From positions 64,537 through 128,536 of the forward strand of contig JBFWUP010000004.1 of the NCBI GenBank assembly GCA_050247195.1: a stretch of DNA of 64,000 bases, given 5' to 3'. Under the pieces are notes generated by a model. The model was not told the origin of the DNA, made no database searches, and saw only the letters and a program-made list of their open reading frames with translations. Positions 3,693 to 60,870 of the stretch are shown here, piece after piece. Each line of letters begins with the position of its first letter. The first letter of the stretch is position 1. The position numbers and the translations under genes were made by a program. The stretch is from Candidatus Melainabacteria bacterium. Lineage in GTDB: Bacteria; Cyanobacteriota; Vampirovibrionia; Vampirovibrionales; Vampirovibrionaceae.

Positions 3693-3815
3693 AAACCCTC
3701 TCCTCTCAGGAGAGGGTGGACTGCCGAAGGCAGGCCGGGTGAGGTCATGGAAGCGCTGACCGCAGCCCGTAAGAACCTCACCCCCCGGCCCCCTCTCCTC
3801 CATGAGGAGAGGGGG
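3693..3815. repeat. GC-rich palindromic REP-like repeats
   Basis: Two hairpins in the cysteine desulfurase-ruvB spacer (ccctctcctctcaggagaggg and ccccctctcctccatgaggagaggggg) belong to a family seen at at least six other sites in the window. Confidence 0.6.
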
Positions 3816-9304: not shown

Positions 9305-9982
9305 ATGAGCTCTAAAACCACTGCCAGCCTGCTGGCCGGCCTGTTTGCCCTGTCGCTGCCCGTCAGCCTGATGCTGAGCCAGCCCGCCATGGCTGAAAAC
9401 ACCCCAGCCAAACACCCTGCCATCAAGCGGGACAGGGTTGAAGACCACCACGACCGCCGCGAAGACCGCCGGGACAGAATGGAAGATAGGGCTGACCGGC
9501 GCGAGGACCGTTGGGATGCCAAACATGACGGTGGACGGGCCGACAAACGCGAGGACCGCCGGGACCGGATGGAAGACCGGGCTGACCGGCACGAAGACCG
9601 CTGGGACCGCCGCGAGGACCGTCGGGAAGGCAGACGTGAAGACCGGCGTGAAGACCGGCGCGACGATCGCCGGGAGAACCGGCAGGACCCGAAACAGCTG
9701 GGCGACAAACCCCACCCGAACCATCCCAACCACCCGGATCACCCCCGGGACATCAGTGGGCCGGTGAGTGAACACCGTCACGAAGAAATGCGTTACCGTC
9801 GCGAGGATCGGCGGGATCGCATGGAAGACCGGGCCGACAAACGCGAAGACCGTTGGGATCGCCGAGAAGATCGCCGGGATGCGATGCATGACGGTGGCCC
9901 GATGGACCGCCGCGAGGATCGCTGGGATCGGCGTGAAGATCGCCGCGACGAGCGCGAAGACAGACGTGACGCCCGGCACTAA
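9305..9982 (+). CDS. Secreted protein built of tandem highly charged REDRRDRMEDRADRREDRWD repeats
   Basis: A GAGAGG Shine-Dalgarno lies 6 nt before the ATG. The product has a signal peptide (MSSKTTASLLAGLFALSLPVSLMLSQPAMA) and at least four copies of a roughly 30-aa repeat that are visible as nucleotide tandem repeats. Confidence 0.6.
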   Translation: MSSKTTASLLAGLFALSLPVSLMLSQPAMAENTPAKHPAIKRDRVEDHHDRREDRRDRMEDRADRREDRWDAKHDGGRADKREDRRDRMEDRADRHEDRWDRREDRREGRREDRREDRRDDRRENRQDPKQLGDKPHPNHPNHPDHPRDISGPVSEHRHEEMRYRREDRRDRMEDRADKREDRWDRREDRRDAMHDGGPMDRREDRWDRREDRRDEREDRRDARH

Positions 9983-10092
9983 GACCGGCGCCCAGACAGA
10001 CACTGAAAACGGCATTCATTCAGGCTGACCCCCCCACTTCCCGCACGGGCCGTGGGGGGTTATGCTATTGGCACAAACCCGGGAGCAGAATC

Positions 10093-10584
10093 ATGAGCGA
10101 CGCCTCAACTGAAAAACAAAGCAAATGCCCGATGAAAAAACTGAAAAGCATTGATGAGATCACCTGGGCCCTGATGATCCTGAAACTGTTTCTCGGACTT
10201 CGGTTTATCCATGCCTTCTGGGGCAAACTAATCGGCGAAAGCGGGGTTCCGGCACTCGGCAATTTGGCCGCAATGGCGCAAAGCATGACGACCATGTTTC
10301 AGGGAAAACTGCCGGCCATGCTCGTTTCTCCCTATGCGTTTGTTCTGCCCTGGGTGGAGTTGACTCTGGGCCTGATGCTGCTGACCTGTTTTTATTCCCG
10401 GACTGTCCTGGTCCTCACGGGTTTCACGTATGTGTCTCTGGCCTTTGGCATGATGCTGCAGGGCAATTACAACACCGTCTCAGACATTGCACTGCACATC
10501 CTGATGGTGGCCACGGCGCTGATTCTGCTGAAACACGCGGGCTGCAAACAGAACGCCTGTCACGATACCGGCAGCCACGGGTAA
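10093..10584 (+). CDS. DoxX-like small integral membrane protein
   Basis: The 163-aa product has four predicted TM helices and a DoxX-like hydrophobic pattern. Confidence 0.45.
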   Translation: MSDASTEKQSKCPMKKLKSIDEITWALMILKLFLGLRFIHAFWGKLIGESGVPALGNLAAMAQSMTTMFQGKLPAMLVSPYAFVLPWVELTLGLMLLTCFYSRTVLVLTGFTYVSLAFGMMLQGNYNTVSDIALHILMVATALILLKHAGCKQNACHDTGSHG

Positions 10585-18364: not shown

Positions 18365-18396
18365 CGCCCCTCTCCTGCAAAGAGAGGGGCGTTTTG
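18365..18396 (+). terminator. Intrinsic terminator (cgcccctctc/ctgcaaa/gagaggggcg followed by TTTTG)
   Basis: A perfect 10-bp stem and a T-run lie right after the M23 peptidase stop. The stem also belongs to the REP-like repeat family. Confidence 0.5.
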
Positions 18397-27142: not shown

Positions 27143-27147
27143 CCTGC

Positions 27148-27288
27148 AAAAAAAATGCCCGCCGGTGGCAGGCAAAGTCTTGAGTAGAGTAAGTAGTAGA
27201 GTTAGAGTGTGTAGAAAAAATTGGAGTTGAGGTTTGTGTGGTATCCGCATAAAAACAGTCTTTTGGGTTTTTGTGCTAGTTTGTAACG
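27148..27288 (-). ncRNA. Putative small RNA module R1 (promoter-like motif, G-poor roughly 90-nt transcript, intrinsic terminator)
   Basis: It is the reverse complement of R2, matching over about 140 bp with one or two mismatches. It contains the ctagcacaaaaaccc…tgtttttatgcggata motif and a gcccgcc-acc-ggcgggc hairpin with a T-run. Confidence 0.3.
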
Positions 27289-27346: not shown

Positions 27347-28183
27347 TTGAGCCCTCCGACCCTTTCCGGCACAATGGCAGAGCAGGCCAGTGAATACGGA
27401 GAGCCCCGACAGATGCCCCACAACGCCATGGAAACCGCCTATGCCGCGCCAGAGATAGCCTTTGGCCCTTGCGGCGAGCCGTGCGATTCCCCATGTGACT
27501 CTCCCTGTGAGGGCGGTGGGGAGGCCGAAGGCCGCCAGGGCTGGCTGCAGAAACTCCTCTGTACGGGTTTCAACAACGCCATTGATCTCTGCTTTGACGA
27601 CGTGTACGCCGAACCCAAAACCATCCTGATGGTGGGCGGCTGCCGCCAGCGAACCTTTGCCCAGCGCCTCGCCCTGATGCTGCCCGGCGCCGAGATTGCC
27701 ATGGTGGATCCCAGTGAGGAAGAGGCTGTGCGCGCCAAACAGGAAATCTGCTGCCGTTTTGAGTTTTTTGTGGCCCCCATGGACCGGCTGCCCTTTGAGG
27801 ACGGCCAGTTTGACCTGGTACTGGCCCATAATCTGGCCGAACTGCTCCCGCCGCAAACCTGGGAAAGCGGCCTGAAAGAGGTGTTGCGCGTGGCCGGCAA
27901 AAACGTGCTGCTCAGCCATCATCGCGGGGGACTGACCCGGGGGATGGAAAGCCTGCTGGGCCTGTGGCCCGGCGCCCCCAGCCGTCCGGTTCAGGCCGCC
28001 CTGAAAGCCGGCGGAATAACGCTGCCGCAGACTCCGGCCCCCAACCCCGCCGATGTGAGGGCGCAACTGCGCCAACTGGCCCCGCAATACGATTTCACCA
28101 CGGAACTCACCCCCTTTCCCTGGCACTTATATATGGGGGTTCACCGGCAGATTCTGGCCGAACACACAGCCCGAACCGCCTGA
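27347..28183 (+). CDS. Class I SAM-dependent methyltransferase with an N-terminal CxxxCxxxCxxxC cysteine cluster
   Basis: It has a Methyltransf_11-like core (ILMVGGC…DLVLAHNL) and an N-terminal GPCGEPCDSPCDSPCEGGGE segment. Inverted copies of the R module flank it. Confidence 0.65.
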   Translation: MSPPTLSGTMAEQASEYGEPRQMPHNAMETAYAAPEIAFGPCGEPCDSPCDSPCEGGGEAEGRQGWLQKLLCTGFNNAIDLCFDDVYAEPKTILMVGGCRQRTFAQRLALMLPGAEIAMVDPSEEEAVRAKQEICCRFEFFVAPMDRLPFEDGQFDLVLAHNLAELLPPQTWESGLKEVLRVAGKNVLLSHHRGGLTRGMESLLGLWPGAPSRPVQAALKAGGITLPQTPAPNPADVRAQLRQLAPQYDFTTELTPFPWHLYMGVHRQILAEHTARTA

Positions 28184-28239: not shown

Positions 28240-28391
28240 CGTTACAAACTAGCACAAAAACCCAAAAGCCTGTTTTTATGCGGATACCACACAAACCTCA
28301 ACTCCAATTTTTTTCTACACACTCTAACTCTACTACTTACTCTACTCAAGACTTTGCCCGCCACCGGCGGGCATTTTTTTTGGCCGTGAGC
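28240..28391 (+). ncRNA. Putative small RNA module R2
   Basis: It has the same promoter-like motif, a G-poor region (ccacacaaacctcaactccaatttttttctacacactctaactctactacttactctactcaag), a perfect gcccgcc-acc-ggcgggc hairpin and a T8 run. Confidence 0.3.
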
Positions 28392-28451: not shown

Positions 28452-28568
28452 GGTTACAAACTAGCACAAAATTCAAAAATGGGGGTTTTATGCCCACAGA
28501 CAACACACTCTACTACTTACTCTACTCAAGACTTTGCCCGCCACCGGCGGGTTTTTTATTGGGCGCGG
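28452..28568 (+). ncRNA. Putative small RNA module R3 (diverged, shorter copy of R2)
   Basis: It contains ttacaaactagcacaaaa…ggttttatgcc…acactctactacttactctactcaagactttgcccgccaccggcgggtttttt. Confidence 0.3.
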
Positions 28569-32659: not shown

Positions 32660-33174
32660 ATGAAAAAACTTCCCTGTCTGACGATCCGTTTTGATCAAAA
32701 AGTGATCTCCGGTCGGCACGCGGGGTCAAAGGATCTACTGCATCCGGAGGAGTGGGAGCAAACCCTTGCTCGGATTGTTTGCAGAAGGGTTCACCACACA
32801 TGCGCTTTGCTGAAACATGCATGGTGATTGCGTTTTACATGCCGTTCTTTAAAAAAAGCGATCGCTTTTTCCGCTTGAATACTCTCCACCAAAAACCGGA
32901 TAAATTCGGTAACGCCCCAATTTAGGCTCAAAAAGTATTGACCTATTTCAGAATTAATGCTTCACTGAGGTATATTTTGTTTATTGATGGAAGTGTTTTT
33001 CACAACTGTCAACCCATTTTCCGGAAGCAATTTTGAAAAATGTGGAAGCAAGATATGTGGAAGTACAGTTGGAGTTGTCTGTAACGTTTAGTGAGTCAAG
33101 ATGTGTCGAATGGGTAGGAATTTTTAGGTTAGTTTAGGTTACCCCTGGATTCAGTAATGTAAGGAGTCAGAACC
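32660..33174. promoter_or_regulatory. A 500-bp AT-rich non-coding leader upstream of the H1-like gene, carrying TGGAAG direct repeats
   Basis: It is the lowest-GC non-coding stretch in the window and contains no ORF. Direct repeats atgtggaag occur at about 33042 and 33057, and tgatggaagtg at about 32988. Confidence 0.4.
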
Positions 33175-33918
33175 TTGAAAACGACTGCGAAGAAAAAACC
33201 CGCTGCGAAGAAACCCGCAGCCAAGAAAACCACCAAGAAAGTGGCCGCCAAAAAGCCCACTGCCAAGAAAATGACCACCAAGAAAGTGGCTGCCAAGAAA
33301 CCGGCTGCTAAGAAAGCAACCAAAAAAGTAGTGGCCAAAAAGCCCGCTGCTAAGAAAACCGCAGCCAAGAAGCCCGTTGCTAAAAAAGCAACCACCAAAA
33401 AAGTGACGGCCAAGAAAACCGCCGCTAAAAAACCGGCTGCTAAAAAAGCAACCACCAAAAAAGTAGTGGCCAAAAAGCCCGCTGCTAAGAAACCGGCTGC
33501 CAAGAAAGCAACCAAAAAAGTAGTGGCCAAGAAAACCGCTGCTAAGAAACCGGTTGCCAAAAAGACTGCCGTAAAAAAAAAAGTAGTCTCTAAAACCGCT
33601 GCTAAAAAGCCACTCGCAAAAAAAAAAGTAGTGGCCAAAAAGCGCTCGGCTAATACGAAAACTGCCAGTAAAGCGGCAAAACCGGTCAACACCTTGTCCT
33701 CGCGGATTAAGGCGACGATCCAGGGTTTTGTGAACGCTCACCGTCAGTTCACCGCCAACGACATTTACGTGGAACTCGCGAAAACTGTCCGCGGCGTGAA
33801 CAAGCAGTCCGTCATCACGTCGGTGCTCAAGCAGATGAAAAGCAACTTCGCCACCGTTCGGGTCACCGAACGGGCGGGTGCAGGCCCCAGACCGGTCAAA
33901 CTGTACATTCCGGCCTGA
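33175..33918 (+). CDS. Histone H1-like lysine/alanine-rich nucleoid protein (KKPAAKK repeats) with a C-terminal globular domain
   Basis: An AAGGAG Shine-Dalgarno lies 9 nt before a TTG start. The N-terminal roughly 160 aa are tandem (A/T)KKPAAKK repeats, and the last roughly 80 aa are non-repetitive. Confidence 0.7.
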
Positions 33919-37248: not shown

Positions 37249-39225
37249 TTGCCCCTGACTGCCCCACAATCCATCCTGCTAGCCCAGCTGAACCCCACCC
37301 CCGGGGATCTGGCCGGCAACGCTCAGCTGATTCTTGAGGCGCTGCGTCACGGCGAAGAACACGGCGTCGGGCTTGTCGTCTCGCCTGAACTGGCGCTGAC
37401 CGGCTACCCCATCCTGGACGCGCTGATGCGTTTTCCGGATCTGGGTGAGCAGAATTTATTGTGGCTGGATGCCCTGGCCCGCAGAACGGGAGAAACCCAC
37501 CTGCTGGTGGGCTTCGTGGAGCCGCGCCGGGTCCAGGCAGGGGATCAGCGTATCGGCAATCCGTTTTTTAACAGCGTGGCCTGGCTGGGCGAAGGCAAGC
37601 TGCTGGGTATCATCCGCAAAAGCCTGCTGCCTTGTTACGAAGAACTGAACGACCCACGCATTTTCGAAGCGTCGCCGGCCATCGGGGTTCACCCGCCGGA
37701 CACCCTGGCCAATAGCCGGTGGGGTTTTCAGCAGCCGACCGGGTCGCCGGGCGTCGCCGTCATCCACGGCGTCCGCTACGGTGTCGTTATTTGTGAGGAC
37801 TCCTGGAACGACGATACGTTTATGGAAAACACACGGTATACGCACGATCCCAACACGGAAACCGCCGCACTGAAGCCGGATGTGATCATGAACCTGTCGG
37901 CTTCCCCCTCACGCATGCGCAAGGAACAACTCCGCCACCATATGCTCGCCCACATCGCCCGTCGGCACCGGCTGCCCCTGGTGTATGTCAACCAGGTGGG
38001 CGCCAATGATGAGATTATTTTTGACGGCGCCAGCCGGGCGTATGACGCCGACGGCGCACTCACCCACCGCGCCCGGGTCTTTGCCACCGATCGCCTCATT
38101 GTGACGCCCGCCTTGCCGGGCCGGGTGGAACCATTGCCCGAGGGTCAGGATGAAACGCTCTCGGATCCCCGGCAGTATCTTCCCGGCGATCCGCATGATC
38201 TGGGCCGGACTTACGCCGCCCTCACACTCGGCATTCGGGACTACTTCGCCAAAACCGGATTCCGTCGGGCGGTACTCGGGCTTTCCGGTGGACTGGATTC
38301 CACCGTGACCGCCGTATTGCTGGCCGATGCGCTGGGACCGGAGAATGTGCTGGGCGTCAGCATGCCGTCCACCCTCACCCCGGCCGAAAACCGGGACGAT
38401 GCCCGGCAGCTGGCTGAGAATCTGGGCATTCTGTTTGAGGAGATCCCCATTGCAGATGCCGTGGCGGCCCTGCAGACAGCCGGCCAGTCGATCAGCGGCG
38501 CTCTCAGCACACACTGGGGTGGCATGAACCCCCAATCCGCCGCACTGGAGAATGCGCAGGCCATCACCCGCGCCACAGTGTTGCGCGGCATCGGCAATGA
38601 TTATGACGCGCTGCCCATCGCCACCTCGGATAAATCGGAACTGATGATGGGCTACGCCACGGTGAACGGGGATATGTCCGGCGCCATTGCCCCACTGGCC
38701 GATGTGGTGAAAACCAAGGTGTTTGCCCTGGCCCGCTGGCTGAATGGACATCGCGAGCGCAGGAATGTCATTCCTCAGCGCATCATTGATCGCAAGCCCG
38801 GTGCAGACCTTCGCCGAAACGCGGAGACCGGAGAACTGGTGCATGCGGAAGAAGACCTGATGCCCTACCTGTTTCTCGATGAAATTATCTGGCGTGAAGA
38901 GAACATTCGCCAGACGATGAGCGACATGCTGACCGAGCGGTTTGCGTATGAAGACACCCACCCGCTTCCGTCGGAAGAAAAGCAAGCCTGGCTGGAGCGG
39001 TATTACTTCCGGCGCGACCGCCTCGGCGTCTTCAAGTGGAAGGTCGCCCCGCCGGCCCTCATTACTGACGCCCACGGCATCAACACGGCCACTTACGCGC
39101 AGTCGATCGTCACGCGCATCCACCACCCCGGCCATACACGGGCAGAGATCGAACAGATCCTGAACAGCACCGGTGCGCTGAATGCCTCTCGCCCTCTCCA
39201 TACAGGAGAGTATGCTGGGGGGTGA
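37249..39225 (+). CDS. nadE: Glutamine-dependent NAD+ synthetase (nitrilase domain plus NadE domain)
   Basis: It has an N-terminal CN-hydrolase domain and a C-terminal GLSGGLDSTV PP-loop, over 658 aa. Confidence 0.9.
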   Translation: MPLTAPQSILLAQLNPTPGDLAGNAQLILEALRHGEEHGVGLVVSPELALTGYPILDALMRFPDLGEQNLLWLDALARRTGETHLLVGFVEPRRVQAGDQRIGNPFFNSVAWLGEGKLLGIIRKSLLPCYEELNDPRIFEASPAIGVHPPDTLANSRWGFQQPTGSPGVAVIHGVRYGVVICEDSWNDDTFMENTRYTHDPNTETAALKPDVIMNLSASPSRMRKEQLRHHMLAHIARRHRLPLVYVNQVGANDEIIFDGASRAYDADGALTHRARVFATDRLIVTPALPGRVEPLPEGQDETLSDPRQYLPGDPHDLGRTYAALTLGIRDYFAKTGFRRAVLGLSGGLDSTVTAVLLADALGPENVLGVSMPSTLTPAENRDDARQLAENLGILFEEIPIADAVAALQTAGQSISGALSTHWGGMNPQSAALENAQAITRATVLRGIGNDYDALPIATSDKSELMMGYATVNGDMSGAIAPLADVVKTKVFALARWLNGHRERRNVIPQRIIDRKPGADLRRNAETGELVHAEEDLMPYLFLDEIIWREENIRQTMSDMLTERFAYEDTHPLPSEEKQAWLERYYFRRDRLGVFKWKVAPPALITDAHGINTATYAQSIVTRIHHPGHTRAEIEQILNSTGALNASRPLHTGEYAGG

Positions 39226-39230
39226 GGTTC

Positions 39231-39290
39231 CTCCGGTGGCGCCGACCTCTCCCCGCCCCTTCGGGGCGACCTTCTCCTGCAAGGAGAGGG
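39231..39290. repeat. GC-rich palindromic REP-like repeat copy
   Basis: It contains ccgcccc-ttc-ggggcg and ccttctcc-tgcaa-ggagaggg between nadE and pckA. Confidence 0.5.
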
Positions 39291-41828: not shown

Positions 41829-41830
41829 TA

Positions 41831-41871
41831 CCCCTCACCCCCCAACCCCCTCTCCCCAAGTGGCGAGGGGG
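41831..41871. repeat. REP-like repeat copy (cccctcaccccccaaccccctctccccaagtggcgaggggg)
   Basis: It has the same orientation and near-identical sequence to the copies at 43586 and 59543. Confidence 0.65.
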
Positions 41872-41879
41872 AAAGCCGG

Positions 41880-42487: not shown

Positions 42488-42604
42488 TGATGGTTGGCGG
42501 CTGCCCTTCCCAATCCCTTATGCTATGGTTACCCATTGTACCGTGCCGGCAGCACGATGCCATGCAACCGGAACGGGGCCGTCTCATTGCAAAGGAATTT
42601 TCCC

Positions 42605-43576
42605 ATGTCCAACACCGTGACCGCCTGTACCGGCGCACCCGCTGCACAAGACCTGATGGACCGGCTGCGGTCTGTGTACCATCTGCCGTTCACGGAACTG
42701 ATCTACCGCGCGCAGACCCTCCACCGCGAGCATCACCCGGCCAATACCGTACAGTTCTGTACGCTGGCCAACGTGAAATCCGGCAACTGCCCGGAGGACT
42801 GCACCTACTGCCCGCAGAGCGCCCGGTACAACACCGGCATCGAGACCTGGGATCTGCCTACCGTGGCGGATATCCGCGCCCAGGCCCGCGAGGCCAGAGC
42901 GAACGGTTCGACACGCTTCTGTATGGGCGCCGCATGGCGCACGCCCCCCAAGGCCCGTTTTGGCGAGGTGCTGGACCTGGTGCGCACCGTGGTGGACGAG
43001 GGCATGGAGGCCTGCGTGACGCTGGGGATGATTGATGACGCGCAGGCCGTGGCGCTGAAAGAGGCCGGCCTGACGGCTTACAACCACAACATTGATACGG
43101 CGCCGAGTTATTACGGCGAGATTATTACCACACGCACCATGCAGGACCGCCTGGATACCCTGAAGGCAGTTTCAGACGCCAATCTGCAGGTCTGCTGCGG
43201 GGGCATTCTGGGTATGGGCGAGACGGTGGAACACCGCCTCGAGATGATCGCCACGCTGTGCAGCCTGGAAACCCCGCCGGAATCCGTGCCGATTAACTGC
43301 CTGGTGCCCGTTGAAGGCACCCCGCTGGCCGATGCGCCGCCGGTGGACCCCATTGAACTGGTGCGCACCATCGCCGTTACGCGGATTTTTCTGCCGCAGG
43401 CGCGGGTGCGGCTTTCCGCCGGGCGGCTGAGTATGAACGACGAGACGCAGGCGCTGTGCTTTCTGGCCGGGGCCAACAGCATATTCACCGGCGAGAAGCT
43501 GCTGACCACTGAAAACCCGGGAAGCACGGCGGATCACGACCTGCTGGCGAAGCTGGGGATGATGGTGGAAGGGTAA
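42605..43576 (+). CDS. bioB: Biotin synthase
   Basis: It has a radical-SAM CPEDCTYCPQS motif and BioB-typical flanking sequence. An internal Met was chosen as the start. Confidence 0.9.
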   Translation: MSNTVTACTGAPAAQDLMDRLRSVYHLPFTELIYRAQTLHREHHPANTVQFCTLANVKSGNCPEDCTYCPQSARYNTGIETWDLPTVADIRAQAREARANGSTRFCMGAAWRTPPKARFGEVLDLVRTVVDEGMEACVTLGMIDDAQAVALKEAGLTAYNHNIDTAPSYYGEIITTRTMQDRLDTLKAVSDANLQVCCGGILGMGETVEHRLEMIATLCSLETPPESVPINCLVPVEGTPLADAPPVDPIELVRTIAVTRIFLPQARVRLSAGRLSMNDETQALCFLAGANSIFTGEKLLTTENPGSTADHDLLAKLGMMVEG

Positions 43577-43585
43577 GTAAACAAA

Positions 43586-43625
43586 CCCCTCTCCCCCAAC
43601 CCCCTCTCCCCAAGGGGCGAGGGGG
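43586..43625. repeat. REP-like repeat copy
   Basis: The copy reads cccctctcccccaaccccctctccccaaggggcgaggggg. Confidence 0.65.
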
Positions 43626-43668
43626 CTTTCAGGTCATCTTTGTAAACTAATATTAACCGCCGGACGCA

Positions 43669-59503: not shown

Positions 59504-59539
59504 ATTCCGGCCCGTCAGGTCAGGACAGAATTTCCAACG

Positions 59540-59929
59540 TTACCCCTCACCCCCCAGCCCCCTCTCCCCAAGGGGCGAGGGGGAGCAAGTCAATCTTTCG
59601 ATTGTCGTTTTCAGGTAACTCAAAAAACATTCCGGCGAGTTCAGAACGACGGCATTGGCATACCGGATAACAACATACCCCATCGCCTCCAAAATTGCCT
59701 GTCGTTCCCGATCATACCCTTCCACATCGGGCAGATTGTGAACTGAGCCGTCCAACTCCAGAACCAGCCTTAGCTCGGGGCAATAAAAATCCACCACAAA
59801 GTACTCAACCGGCTTCTGGCGGTAAAATTTGTAACCCATCACCTGGCGATTGCGAATCAACAGCCAGCAGGCCTGTTCAGCGGGGGTTTCCCGGTGACGC
59901 AGTAGTCGGGCTTTCTGGGTTGCCTCCAT
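59540..59929 (-). CDS. DUF559 (Vsr-like, restriction-endonuclease-fold) protein
   Basis: The sequence …GYKFYRQKPVEYFVVDFYCPELRLVLELDGSVH…ERQAILEAMGYVVIRY… is a typical DUF559 core. The C-terminal 17 aa derive from the REP-like repeat. Confidence 0.65.
   Translation of the reverse strand: MEATQKARLLRHRETPAEQACWLLIRNRQVMGYKFYRQKPVEYFVVDFYCPELRLVLELDGSVHNLPDVEGYDRERQAILEAMGYVVIRYANAVVLNSPECFLSYLKTTIERLTCSPSPLGERGLGGEG
59543..59583. repeat. REP-like repeat copy (cccctcaccccccagccccctctccccaaggggcgaggggg)
   Basis: The copy is in direct orientation and encodes the last residues of the DUF559 ORF on the opposite strand. Confidence 0.65.
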
Positions 59930-59951
59930 AGCAACATTCTAGCAAACGTTT

Positions 59952-60016
59952 CTCCCCCTCGCCCCTTGGGGAGAGGGGGCTGGGGGGTGAGGGGTCAAAG
60001 GTTGGGGGGTGAGGGG
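59952..60016. repeat. REP-like repeat copy, inverted orientation, with tandem ggggggtgagggg units
   Basis: The copy reads ctccccctcgccccttggggagagggggctggggggtgaggggtcaaaggttggggggtgagggg. Confidence 0.65.
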
Positions 60017-60021
60017 TTAAA

Positions 60022-60870
60022 CTACCCCGTGAAATCGGTGCCGAAGAAAATCCAGCTCAGGAAGAAATCAGCGATGATGATGGCGATGGCGATGCCGATG
60101 ACCGCGCGGGTGGTGGAAGAACCCACGTCCTTCGCCCCACCCTCAGTCATCAGTCCGCGCGTGCAGCTGATGGCCACCAGAATGAGACCAAAGATGACCG
60201 CCTTGACCAGGCTGACCGTGATATCCTTGCGGCCCAGGTACAACCAGATGGAATCCATATATTTCACGTAGCGGATGTTCGCCACGCTCTGCGCCACCAC
60301 CATGCCCGCCAGCACGCCCATCACCTCACCGAGAAACGTCAGCAGCGGCAGCACCAGCACGGCGGCAATCAGCCGCGGCACCACCAGGTAACGGATGGGG
60401 CTCACATGCAGAATCTGCATTGCAGAAACCTGCTCGGTGACTTTCATGTTGGCGATCTGCGCCGTAATGGCCGTACCGCTGCGCGCGCCCACCGTCAGCG
60501 CCGTAAAAATGGGCGACATCTCGCGCACCATCGCCACAGCCACCATACCGCCCACATAGCCGTCGGCGCCGTTGTTAATAAACTGTTCGGCCGTTTGCAG
60601 CGACAGAATGGCCCCGGCGATCATACAGATCAGGATGGCAATGGGAATGCTGTCATACCCAATGCTGGCGGCCTGCTGTATCGTCTGTCCCCAGTCAATA
60701 CGACCGCGGATAATCAGCCAGAGCCCAGCCCAGAGGTTGGCCACAATCAGGCCCATATACTCCAGCCACACCAGCACGGCGGTCAGCGGTTGCGTGAGCG
60801 CCCGGAGGAGCCTCCGGCGGCGTCGCTCCCGGAAGAGAACGATCCACCGTCGGGTGCTATAGGGTAACAA
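60022..60870 (-). CDS. mlaE: MlaE-family ABC transporter permease
   Basis: It is a multi-TM protein with an MlaE/Ttg2B-like pattern (…GARSGTAITAQIANMKVTEQV…). Confidence 0.75.
   Translation of the reverse strand: MLPYSTRRWIVLFRERRRRRLLRALTQPLTAVLVWLEYMGLIVANLWAGLWLIIRGRIDWGQTIQQAASIGYDSIPIAILICMIAGAILSLQTAEQFINNGADGYVGGMVAVAMVREMSPIFTALTVGARSGTAITAQIANMKVTEQVSAMQILHVSPIRYLVVPRLIAAVLVLPLLTFLGEVMGVLAGMVVAQSVANIRYVKYMDSIWLYLGRKDITVSLVKAVIFGLILVAISCTRGLMTEGGAKDVGSSTTRAVIGIAIAIIIADFFLSWIFFGTDFTG

Follow-up and report, generated by a model that had tools for sequence, protein, structure and literature searches.

A gene coding for a small DUF559 protein, a Vsr-like nuclease of the PD-(D/E)XK fold, lies between two inverted copies of a dispersed GC-rich repeat in a 64,000-nucleotide (nt) stretch of a metagenome-assembled genome (MAG) of Candidatus Melainabacteria. 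This whole stretch is called the window in the following, and coordinates refer to it. The repeat is composed of a box and a hairpin and is a long-stem variant of the intrastrand triplex motifs (TMs) known as BoxC, PIT, or TMECO. Across bacteria, the coupling of Vsr-like nuclease genes with arms of the BoxC/TM type is specific, polar, and widespread, and gene and repeats are found inserted as one unit in unrelated host genes. The best reading of these data is a partnership between nuclease and repeat, with a layout like that of the REP/RAYT system and mobile as a cassette. As for its two central claims, that DUF559 acts on these repeats and that the unit is mobile, we consider the chances evenly balanced.

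The DUF559 Gene and Its Arms in the Window

The preliminary description of this locus had placed a DUF559 gene within an inverted repeat pair, and this is borne out. The arms are 47 nt each, 98% complementary, and 360 nt apart, and the protein encoded between them matches the Pfam family DUF559 (PF04480) with E = 3.1e-30 (104.7 bits, cut-off 20.6), with a weaker match to the enteric YcjD model. The cassette contains the following features.

59540..59929, minus strand: DUF559 (Vsr-like PD-(D/E)XK) open reading frame (ORF) of 129 aa, with a core of residues 1-115
59542..59588, plus strand: 3′-side arm, with C-box at 59543-59555, spacer AG, and hairpin at 59558-59583 (CCCCCTCTCCCC AA GGGGCGAGGGGG)
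59949..59995, minus strand: 5′-side inverted arm, with hairpin at 59954-59979, spacer CT, and G-box at 59982-59994
60004..60016, minus strand: extra outer box copy, GGGGGGTGAGGGG on the plus strand

Each arm is made up of a C-rich box (CCCCTCACCCCCC), a 2-nt spacer, and a hairpin (CCCCCTCTCCCC-AA-GGGGCGAGGGGG), and the hairpins are proximal and the boxes distal to the gene. The stems of the window copies are 12 nt long and contain a T.C mismatch. On the 5′ side, the inner end of the arm lies ~20 nt ahead of the DUF559 ATG, and a stop codon stands between the frame encoded by the arm and the ORF. On the 3′ side, the arm donates ~15-16 codons (..CSPSPLGERGLGGEG) to the ORF, and not 17 as first described, plus an abutting TAA. 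The last ~15 residues of the protein (SPSPLGERGLGGEG) are therefore encoded by the repeat, and the stop codon abuts the repeat end. Pro-rich..Gly-rich ORF tails are also seen in DUF559 homologs of other phyla. A Vsr-type T:G mismatch was considered as a feature of the hairpin and rejected, the window stems having T.C and those of other phyla being perfect.

The cassette holds the DUF559 ORF only, with no DDE, HUH, serine, or tyrosine transposase, and the Pfam matches are DUF559 and MTES_1575 only, with no HUH/Y1 enzyme. It begins 5 nt after the stop codon of mlaE (60022-60024, 5 nt past the outer box), in the same orientation as ilvE-mlaE and convergent with a methyltransferase-fabF operon. 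This copy of DUF559 is probably expressed via read-through from ilvE-mlaE.

Judging from its sequence and its predicted structure, the window protein looks like an intact Vsr-type nuclease, not an obviously dead one. The preliminary description had tied its idea of mobilization to such an intact enzyme, and 15/15 of the family-invariant positions of a 23-homolog alignment are kept (T15, E18, W22, R37, Q38, V46, D47, F48, C50, L55, E58, D60, H64, D73, and R76). The active-site residues would map onto Vsr D51/H69/D97. The protein matches PDB 3hrl in sequence (3hrl_A, E = 5e-13). Its AlphaFold model (pLDDT 87.6) is of low confidence only in the repeat-encoded tail, and its structural matches are, in order, 3hrl (TM-score 0.91, normalized to the target), the catalytic domain of I-Bth0305I (3r3p, E = 5e-4), and then RAP-domain proteins and Vsr (1vsr, prob 0.99).

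The Association of DUF559 Genes with the Repeat across Bacteria

A scan of one genome per species gave 80 DUF559 loci with 37-51% identity to the window protein. These were picked by likeness to the subfamily of the window protein and stand for that subfamily, not for all DUF559; the family, for which a structure has been solved, is very large, with 7,859 clusters at 50% identity that reach E ≤ 1e-10 against the window protein. Random placements and other ORFs within the same loci served as controls. The positional association of DUF559 genes with the repeat, the other point on which the idea of mobilization had been made to depend, is clear: the best ungapped flanking inverted repeat reaches a score of at least 18 in 34 of the 80 loci, compared with 0/366 for random placements and 3/689 for control ORFs. 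A C-first hairpin was defined as a stem of at least 8 bp with at most one mismatch and a 5′ arm of at least 60% C, and was sought in the 72 loci with full flanks. It is present upstream of the DUF559 gene in 53 of them (7% of random placements), downstream in 54 (6.6%), and on both sides in 42 (58%, against 0.5%).

At the clearest loci, one finds CCTCACCCCC-N3-CCCCCTCTCC-loop-GGAGAGGGGG, the gene, and then hairpin-N3-GGGGGTGAGG, i.e., the architecture of the window and often nearly the same sequence, in Gemmatimonadota, Chloroflexota, a Cylindrospermum, a Rubricoccaceae MAG, and a gammaproteobacterium. Recognizable boxes are mostly distal to the gene. As a rule, the ORF runs into the downstream hairpin, the start of which precedes the end of the protein match by 20-45 nt. 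Across phyla, box and stem keep their sequence beside proteins that are only 40-50% identical, and the comparison of two loci from different MAGs (L047 and L055), with an arm identical at 47/47 positions and a gene that aligns in patches only, shows the arms to be the better conserved part. Other lineages have other C-run/G-run hairpins, such as CCCCCC..GGGGGG in cyanobacteria and CCCCCTTT..AAAGGGGG in β- and γ-proteobacteria.

The reverse scan, for the exact pattern CCTCACCCCCNNNCCCCCTCTCC in metagenome contigs, gave at least 120 contigs and 145 arms in 707 kb among the matches listed, to which the following counts refer. On the hairpin side, 600 nt or more were available for 107 arms; a DUF559 gene lies within 300 nt there in 8 cases and is absent in 99, and no DUF559 gene lies on the box side (0 cases); thus, ~8% of the arms adjoin DUF559 and ~92% do not. 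Conversely, every DUF559 match in the listed 707 kb adjoins an arm. Some 62 arms lack an inverted partner within 900 nt, some 36 have a partner within 190 nt with no gene, and 5 of the 6 pairs spaced 370-560 nt enclose DUF559. Past the G-arm and past the outer end of the box, conservation drops sharply, and the loops are hypervariable (4-25 nt). The distribution of the arms recalls that of REPs, in that solo arms and doublets are many and units with the gene are few; the geometry of the latter is fixed.

These data bear directly on local coincidence, that is, on the view that mlaE and the methyltransferase gene each end in an ordinary GC-rich hairpin and that a small horizontally acquired gene happens to lie between the two. 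The placement of the cassette between convergent genes would fit such a view, as would the solo copy at 41829, which is found at the same kind of site. Yet the arms agree at 98% over 47 nt where shuffles expect 0 matches, the hairpins are devoid of terminator features, and the same architecture recurs in dozens of unrelated genomes. The cross-genome statistics (3/689 control ORFs; hairpins on both sides in 0.5% of random placements) rule coincidence out, and we give it a practically negligible probability.

On plasmid pAQ6 of the model cyanobacterium Picosynechococcus PCC 7002 (L206:2780-3640), several CCCCC-loop-GGGGG-N3-GGGGG units surround a DUF559 gene, which is placed between the PIN/DUF499 and DUF1156 genes of a defense-like cluster.

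The Repeat as a BoxC/PIT/TMECO Motif

The motif was named BoxC first, then PIT, and then TMECO, and the literature on it includes Bergler (1992) and Hoyne and Maher (2000). From its block structure, the repeat of the window is a long-stem variant of this intrastrand triplex motif. It has the same three G/C blocks (CCCTCNCCC .. GGGNGAGGG .. GGGNGAGGG), occurs in multiple, largely intergenic copies that are single or in inverted pairs, and has loops that are less conserved than the stems. It differs in its 12-nt stems and in a second spacer that, in a reading with 9-nt stems, is 7 nt long instead of 3. As a consequence, the strict published pattern CCCTCNCCC N3-6 GGGNGAGGG N3 GGGNGAGGG (Holder et al., NAR 2015, PMC4666352) is not matched in the window. 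When the pattern is relaxed (spacers of 2-8 and 1-8 nt), there are three exact matches in the window, against 0 expected, and these are the two cassette arms and the solo arm at 43583.

TMECO has been counted at 3,610 copies, spread over 262 genomes of proteobacteria; cyanobacteria, Neisseria, and Pseudomonas have related motifs rich in G and C (PMC4666352). According to the same study, the triplex formed in vitro (for the E. coli sequence only) and could not be demonstrated in vivo, rearrangement is elevated at TM loci, and no transposase, integrase, or mobility function has ever been found near TM motifs, the origin of which is called “unclear.” The study names neither DUF559 nor ycjD. Our literature search gave no publication that connects DUF559 with these repeats, an absence that is no proof of absence. 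The repeat itself is already known; its link with DUF559 appears to be new to the literature.

The preliminary description also held that all copies were intergenic and that several doubled as terminators. The first claim does not hold, and the second is not supported: the arm at 59542-59588 lies inside the DUF559 ORF, and another copy (39186-39236) overlaps the end of ORF 37249..39225. In the window, no U-run follows the hairpins, and neither a sigma-70-like promoter nor a canonical terminator was called at the repeats. PIT elements likewise showed neither promoter nor terminator activity in an earlier study cited in PMC4666352. The RNA folds of the repeats are not exceptional relative to shuffles (z from -0.6 to -2), and Rfam gave no meaningful match for the repeat, only sub-threshold microRNA matches.

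In single-strand folds of 59530-59600 and 59940-60025, the box can replace the C-arm as the pairing partner of the G-arm. This alternative pairing is the same three-block redundancy as that behind the proposed triplex.

Insertion of the Cassette as a Unit

Stop-to-stop translation around DUF559 matches shows whole cassettes in frame inside unrelated genes, and gene and repeats are hence inserted as one unit. Two of these genes (L054, at 9881-10385, and L076) code for PriA, where a 3hrl-like domain is inserted ahead of the Walker A motif and both arms are translated as Pro/Gly linkers. Two other loci, L001 and L012, code for homologous type-ISP-like enzymes, with the cassette after the DIFHYVYALLHHPGYRQRY..LPRIPL block in the former and before this block in the latter. 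These are two different sites and two independent insertions, and each locus is the empty site of the other. L002 is also among the loci with an in-frame DUF559 cassette.

Of the best 150 cluster representatives of the family (of 7,859), 19 exceed 300 aa. A Pfam scan of 10 of these identified one UvrC, four HsdS, one HsdR, one HsdM, two type IIG, and one type ISP. Restriction-modification genes predominate among the hosts of the cassette. In the UvrC, the RNase H domain is split, and one of the type IIG proteins carries two DUF559 copies. Embedded cassettes are found in P0055, P0061, P0132, P0135, P0154, P0165, P0168, P0172, P0181, and P0188, and Pro..Gly linkers stand on both sides of the DUF559 domain in 6/6 host proteins inspected by sequence.

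There may be more than one copy per genome, as in the pairs L029/L041 and L013/L047, and protein P0055 has two. The pair L029 and L041 was considered as a recent transposition and rejected: the cassettes are 92% identical, but the neighboring DNA is duplicated too. Shorter derivatives also occur. In L024, a gene-less 200-nt doublet has 119 nt (96%) in common with the left end of the full cassette. In a Phototrophicaceae genome (L033, 9390-11340), there are many MITE-like doublets of ~180 nt, composed of boxes, hairpin, a conserved core of ~75 nt, hairpin, and boxes, and a stretch of 20 kb contains 18 arm copies. Hairpins that stand alone between two boxes exist as well. Genomes with a cassette thus formed by gene and arms also carry many solo arms and gene-less doublets of the repeat that flanks their own DUF559 gene.

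One may ask if these movements are simply the work of the host. The TM units would then be recombination-prone, structure-forming DNA, displaced by replication slippage and host recombination and used by the cassette as linkers, insulators, or homology arms, in passive association with DUF559, the role of which would lie elsewhere (Vsr-like mismatch repair, defense, or a toxin). TM loci are reported as rearrangement hot spots without a mobility gene (PMC4666352), Caulobacter VsrA is linked to a cytosine methylase, and the repeat type sometimes tracks the host lineage and not the DUF559 clade (L054/L076 versus L012/L002). Moreover, since the hairpins are palindromic, the left and right hairpins of a cassette are also direct repeats, so slippage between them could delete or copy the gene; deletion would leave one hairpin flanked by boxes. 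A passive association nevertheless fits poorly with the exclusive relation to DUF559: only 3/689 other ORFs are flanked, and the 5/6 medium-spaced arm pairs, among the matches listed, hold DUF559 and no other gene. Besides, the ORF extends into the arm and has its stop codon within the repeat or directly at its end, and box and stem remain conserved across phyla beside a protein of 40-50% identity. We consider this explanation rather doubtful.

Enteric Bacteria: ycjD and TMECO

The E. coli homolog ycjD, identified by tblastn, ends in ..SPSP*, read from CCCTCTCCC-TGAAA-GrGCGAGGGGG. The ORF thus terminates within a BoxC/TMECO hairpin. Past ycjD and upstream of fabI lies a BoxC element, CCCCTCGCCCC-TCT-GGGGAGAGGG-TTA-GGGTGAGGGG. 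The founding E. coli copies of the motif are those beside ycjD; BoxC was first described upstream of envM (fabI). In the sapF-ycjD-fabI region of two E. coli records (L207:1790-2070 and L209:2330-2560), ycjD is followed by a degenerate duplicate of its own 3′ end and a hairpin. A “12-nt insertion” has been reported at the 3′ end of ycjD in ST69 and ST182, and the 12-nt strain-to-strain indel at this end equals one box unit.

Among complete E. coli genomes, 3378/5426 have ycjD, in single copy and in the sapF-fabI interval, and those without it (38%) have the eefRABC efflux operon at that site. Replacement of eef by ycjD is reported to have taken place two or more times independently (PMC12817139). 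TMECO-like places were counted by BLAST with one TMECO and its unique flank, which also gives the state of the locus.

Full ycjD-type locus: 36 records, median of 21 TMECO-like places (range 15-29)
O157-like locus: 7 records, median of 16 TMECO-like places
eef/B2-like locus, including CFT073: 15 records, median of 5 TMECO-like places

The correlation between ycjD and the TMECO count in E. coli is only suggestive. Named relatives of YcjD are found in Escherichia, Shigella, Enterobacter (including E. asburiae), Kluyvera, Klebsiella oxytoca, and others, and Salmonella is absent among the 120 YcjD matches listed, as far as these have a name. Escherichia, Shigella, and Enterobacter are genera rich in TMECO. 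E. asburiae is the most TMECO-rich genome, and TMECO is absent in Salmonella (Holder et al., PMC4666352). The homolog of Enterobacter asburiae occupies a different locus (hemW-yggM), and its ORF ends inside an inverted TMECO doublet.

The E. coli data suit a domesticated analog of the REP/RAYT system, the idea of the preliminary description in its strict sense, in which a single-copy host enzyme, vertically inherited, would generate, maintain, or process TM repeats to the advantage of the cell, the arms being its nearest substrates and the cassette not being selfish. In the 3378/5426 genomes, ycjD is present at one locus and in one copy; ycjD-positive genomes have more TMECO-like sites, and ~92% of the arms sampled (among the matches listed) have no adjacent DUF559. 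Against this, PriA, UvrC, and restriction-modification genes contain whole cassettes that were inserted independently at several sites, there can be several copies per genome (L029/L041, L013/L047, P0055), and the Enterobacter and E. coli homologs lie at different loci. Such behavior is more that of a mobile element than of a housekeeping gene, and we regard domestication as unlikely.

A Proposed Partnership between Nuclease and Repeat

If the partnership is real, the DUF559 protein would recognize the arms, as sequence, extruded hairpin, or triplex, and would nick or cut there, and it is this recognition, with cutting or mobilization of the arms, that we infer from the association. The break would then help the cassette to be copied, in a homing- or transposition-like manner, to repeat sites elsewhere or to new sites. 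In the homing route, a cut resident TM site would be repaired from a filled copy, with box and arm as homology, which would explain that the arm type sometimes tracks the host lineage. In a transposon-like route, the cassette would be excised and inserted, which would explain arms that track the protein and new insertion sites in genes. The arms, which code for Pro and Gly and are mostly free of stops, allow the cassette to survive within coding regions. The same activity might spread or erode solo arms, as RAYTs do for REPs. A broader version of this reading is that DUF559 proteins are the missing partner enzymes of the BoxC/PIT/TMECO repeats and form with them a pan-bacterial class of mobile elements that had not been recognized before, solo repeats and TM instability being by-products of the nuclease; this we put forward tentatively, as possible though on balance doubtful.

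Several observations weigh against the partnership. An empty site of the window copy was not found, as the nearest relatives of the flanking methyltransferase are at most 55% identical and synteny stops right after the methyltransferase gene. Neither a target-site duplication nor a target motif was found in 18 loci with strong inverted repeats and 129 metagenome arms; candidate duplications are a possible TTA in the window and a possible 8-nt ATCTTAAC outside both arms of L072 (9836 and 10350). Layouts are heterogeneous, with boxes that face the gene in a minority of loci, a DUF559 gene in L033 that is located between two complete doublets and not inside one, and repeats at the 3′ end only in enteric ycjD. 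The E. coli gene is a fixed, single-copy locus with no sign of recent mobility. The higher TMECO-like counts of ycjD-positive E. coli (rank test, p ~2e-7) are heavily confounded by phylogroup, and O157-like genomes without ycjD retain ~16 TMECO-like sites. Lastly, the role proposed for VsrA, a DUF559 protein of Caulobacter, is that of a nuclease in repair or linked to methylation. PD-(D/E)XK nucleases hydrolyze DNA, and we know of no strand transfer carried out by them.

Comparison with Known Systems

The likeness to REP/REPINs and their RAYTs, to which the preliminary description had pointed, is one of layout, and this layout recurs in many phyla: a small nuclease gene stands between inverted copies of a dispersed box and imperfect palindrome, most copies are solo or in doublets far from the gene, and the gene is single-copy in E. 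coli. The system is not a member of that family. DUF559 is a Vsr-like PD-(D/E)XK hydrolase, whereas RAYT (TnpA-REP) is a HUH/Y1 transposase, and the repeat is unrelated in sequence and has no GTAG-type box. The DUF559 cassette also inserts in frame within genes and can be multi-copy; we know of no RAYT inserted in frame inside genes as a cassette.

The EDxHD homing endonuclease I-Bth0305I (PDB 3r3p) is the second-best structural match and has a Vsr-like active site, and relatives of the window protein lie, in a homing-like manner, inside DNA-metabolism and restriction-modification genes. Unlike it, the window protein (129 aa) has no NUMOD or helix-turn-helix DNA-binding region. There is no intron or intein, the DUF559 insertion staying in the host protein, and the cassette has repeat arms, of which homing genes have no need. 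N. gonorrhoeae NGO0050 (PDB 3hrl), E. coli YcjD, and Caulobacter VsrA share family and fold and are small stand-alone proteins. In the literature, VsrA is connected with a methylase, as a nuclease of DNA repair, and not with repeats.

MITEs and Rickettsia palindromic elements provide a further comparison, as they show terminal inverted repeats, short gene-less derivatives, and tolerated in-frame insertion in coding genes. The DUF559 cassette has in common with MITEs and transposons with terminal inverted repeats both these repeats and the gene-less short derivatives. It differs in that the full-length partner codes for a 115-aa nuclease only and not for a DDE transposase, and in that a target-site duplication is in general not seen.

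Catalogs of BoxC/PIT/TMECO repeats go back to 1992, and copies have been tallied in hundreds of genomes; the last study devoted to them calls their origin and mechanism unanswered (PMC4666352). The coupling with DUF559 turns two old unknowns into one testable hypothesis, and a test is feasible in E. coli K-12, which has both ycjD and 23 TMECOs. If true, it would establish a repeat-nuclease system based on an enzyme class different from that of REP/RAYT, and an element that is driven by a 115-aa Vsr-like nuclease and lives in frame inside genes by means of structure-forming arms encoding Pro/Gly linkers. It would also explain the presence of DUF559 domains amid restriction-modification, repair, and replication proteins. 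Finally, “DUF559 domain-containing protein” has been reported as enriched, without explanation (odds ratio 14.3), among predicted programmed-inversion targets, i.e., coding sequences overlapped by inverted repeats, and the coupling would account for this score.

Other Repeats in the Window

The copies of the repeat given in the preliminary description at 41831, 43586, and 59543 in one orientation and at 59952 inverted are all confirmed. The 25-nt core CCCCTCTCCCCAAGGGGCGAGGGGG is found at 41847 (plus strand, one mismatch), 43601 (plus), 59559 (plus), and 59954 (minus), against 0.00 expected from shuffles, and the box CCCCTCACCCCCC at 41831 and 59543 (plus) and at 59982 and 60004 (minus). The 11-mer CCCCTCNCCCC occurs 12 times in the window for 0.48 expected. 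Outside the cassette, the copies are the following.

41829..41872, plus strand: solo arm of box and hairpin, 95% identical to 59541-59584
43583..43626, plus strand: solo arm of box variant CCCCTCTCCCCC and hairpin, past the stop of ORF 42494..43576
3695..3815: two diverged units with the boxes facing, hairpin 3695-3717 with ..GGGTGAGGTC, and AACCTCACCCCCC GG with hairpin 3789-3815
39186..39236, minus strand: diverged solo unit of hairpin and GGGGGGTGAGGTT, at the end of ORF 37249..39225

The first of these occupies the whole gap separating two convergent genes. As to the related hairpins that had been described, those at 3695-3815 and 39186-39236 are indeed units of box and hairpin; that at 18365 lacks a box and leads into a T-run, which gives it the look of an ordinary terminator.

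A second dispersed intergenic family, GCACAAAAACC..GTTTTTATGC, forms an A/T hairpin with TAGCAC ahead of it and is present at 28252, 28464, 43666, 45024, 46035, and 46881; one of its copies lies 40 nt past the solo triplex-motif arm at 43583. A 142-nt inverted repeat (27147-27288 and 28240-28382, 99% complementary, with a partial third copy at 28507-28560) encloses a segment of ~950 nt with ORF 27347..28183 (plus strand, 278 aa), and the segment 27147-28382 may be another bracketed or invertible unit. Within coding regions, there are repeats of 21-nt and 12-nt periods (CGCGAAGACCGCCGGGAC-type) at 9416-9990, and repeats of a 15-nt period at 33143-33680 that encode a Lys/Ala-rich segment (KKAAAKK-type, histone-H1-like).

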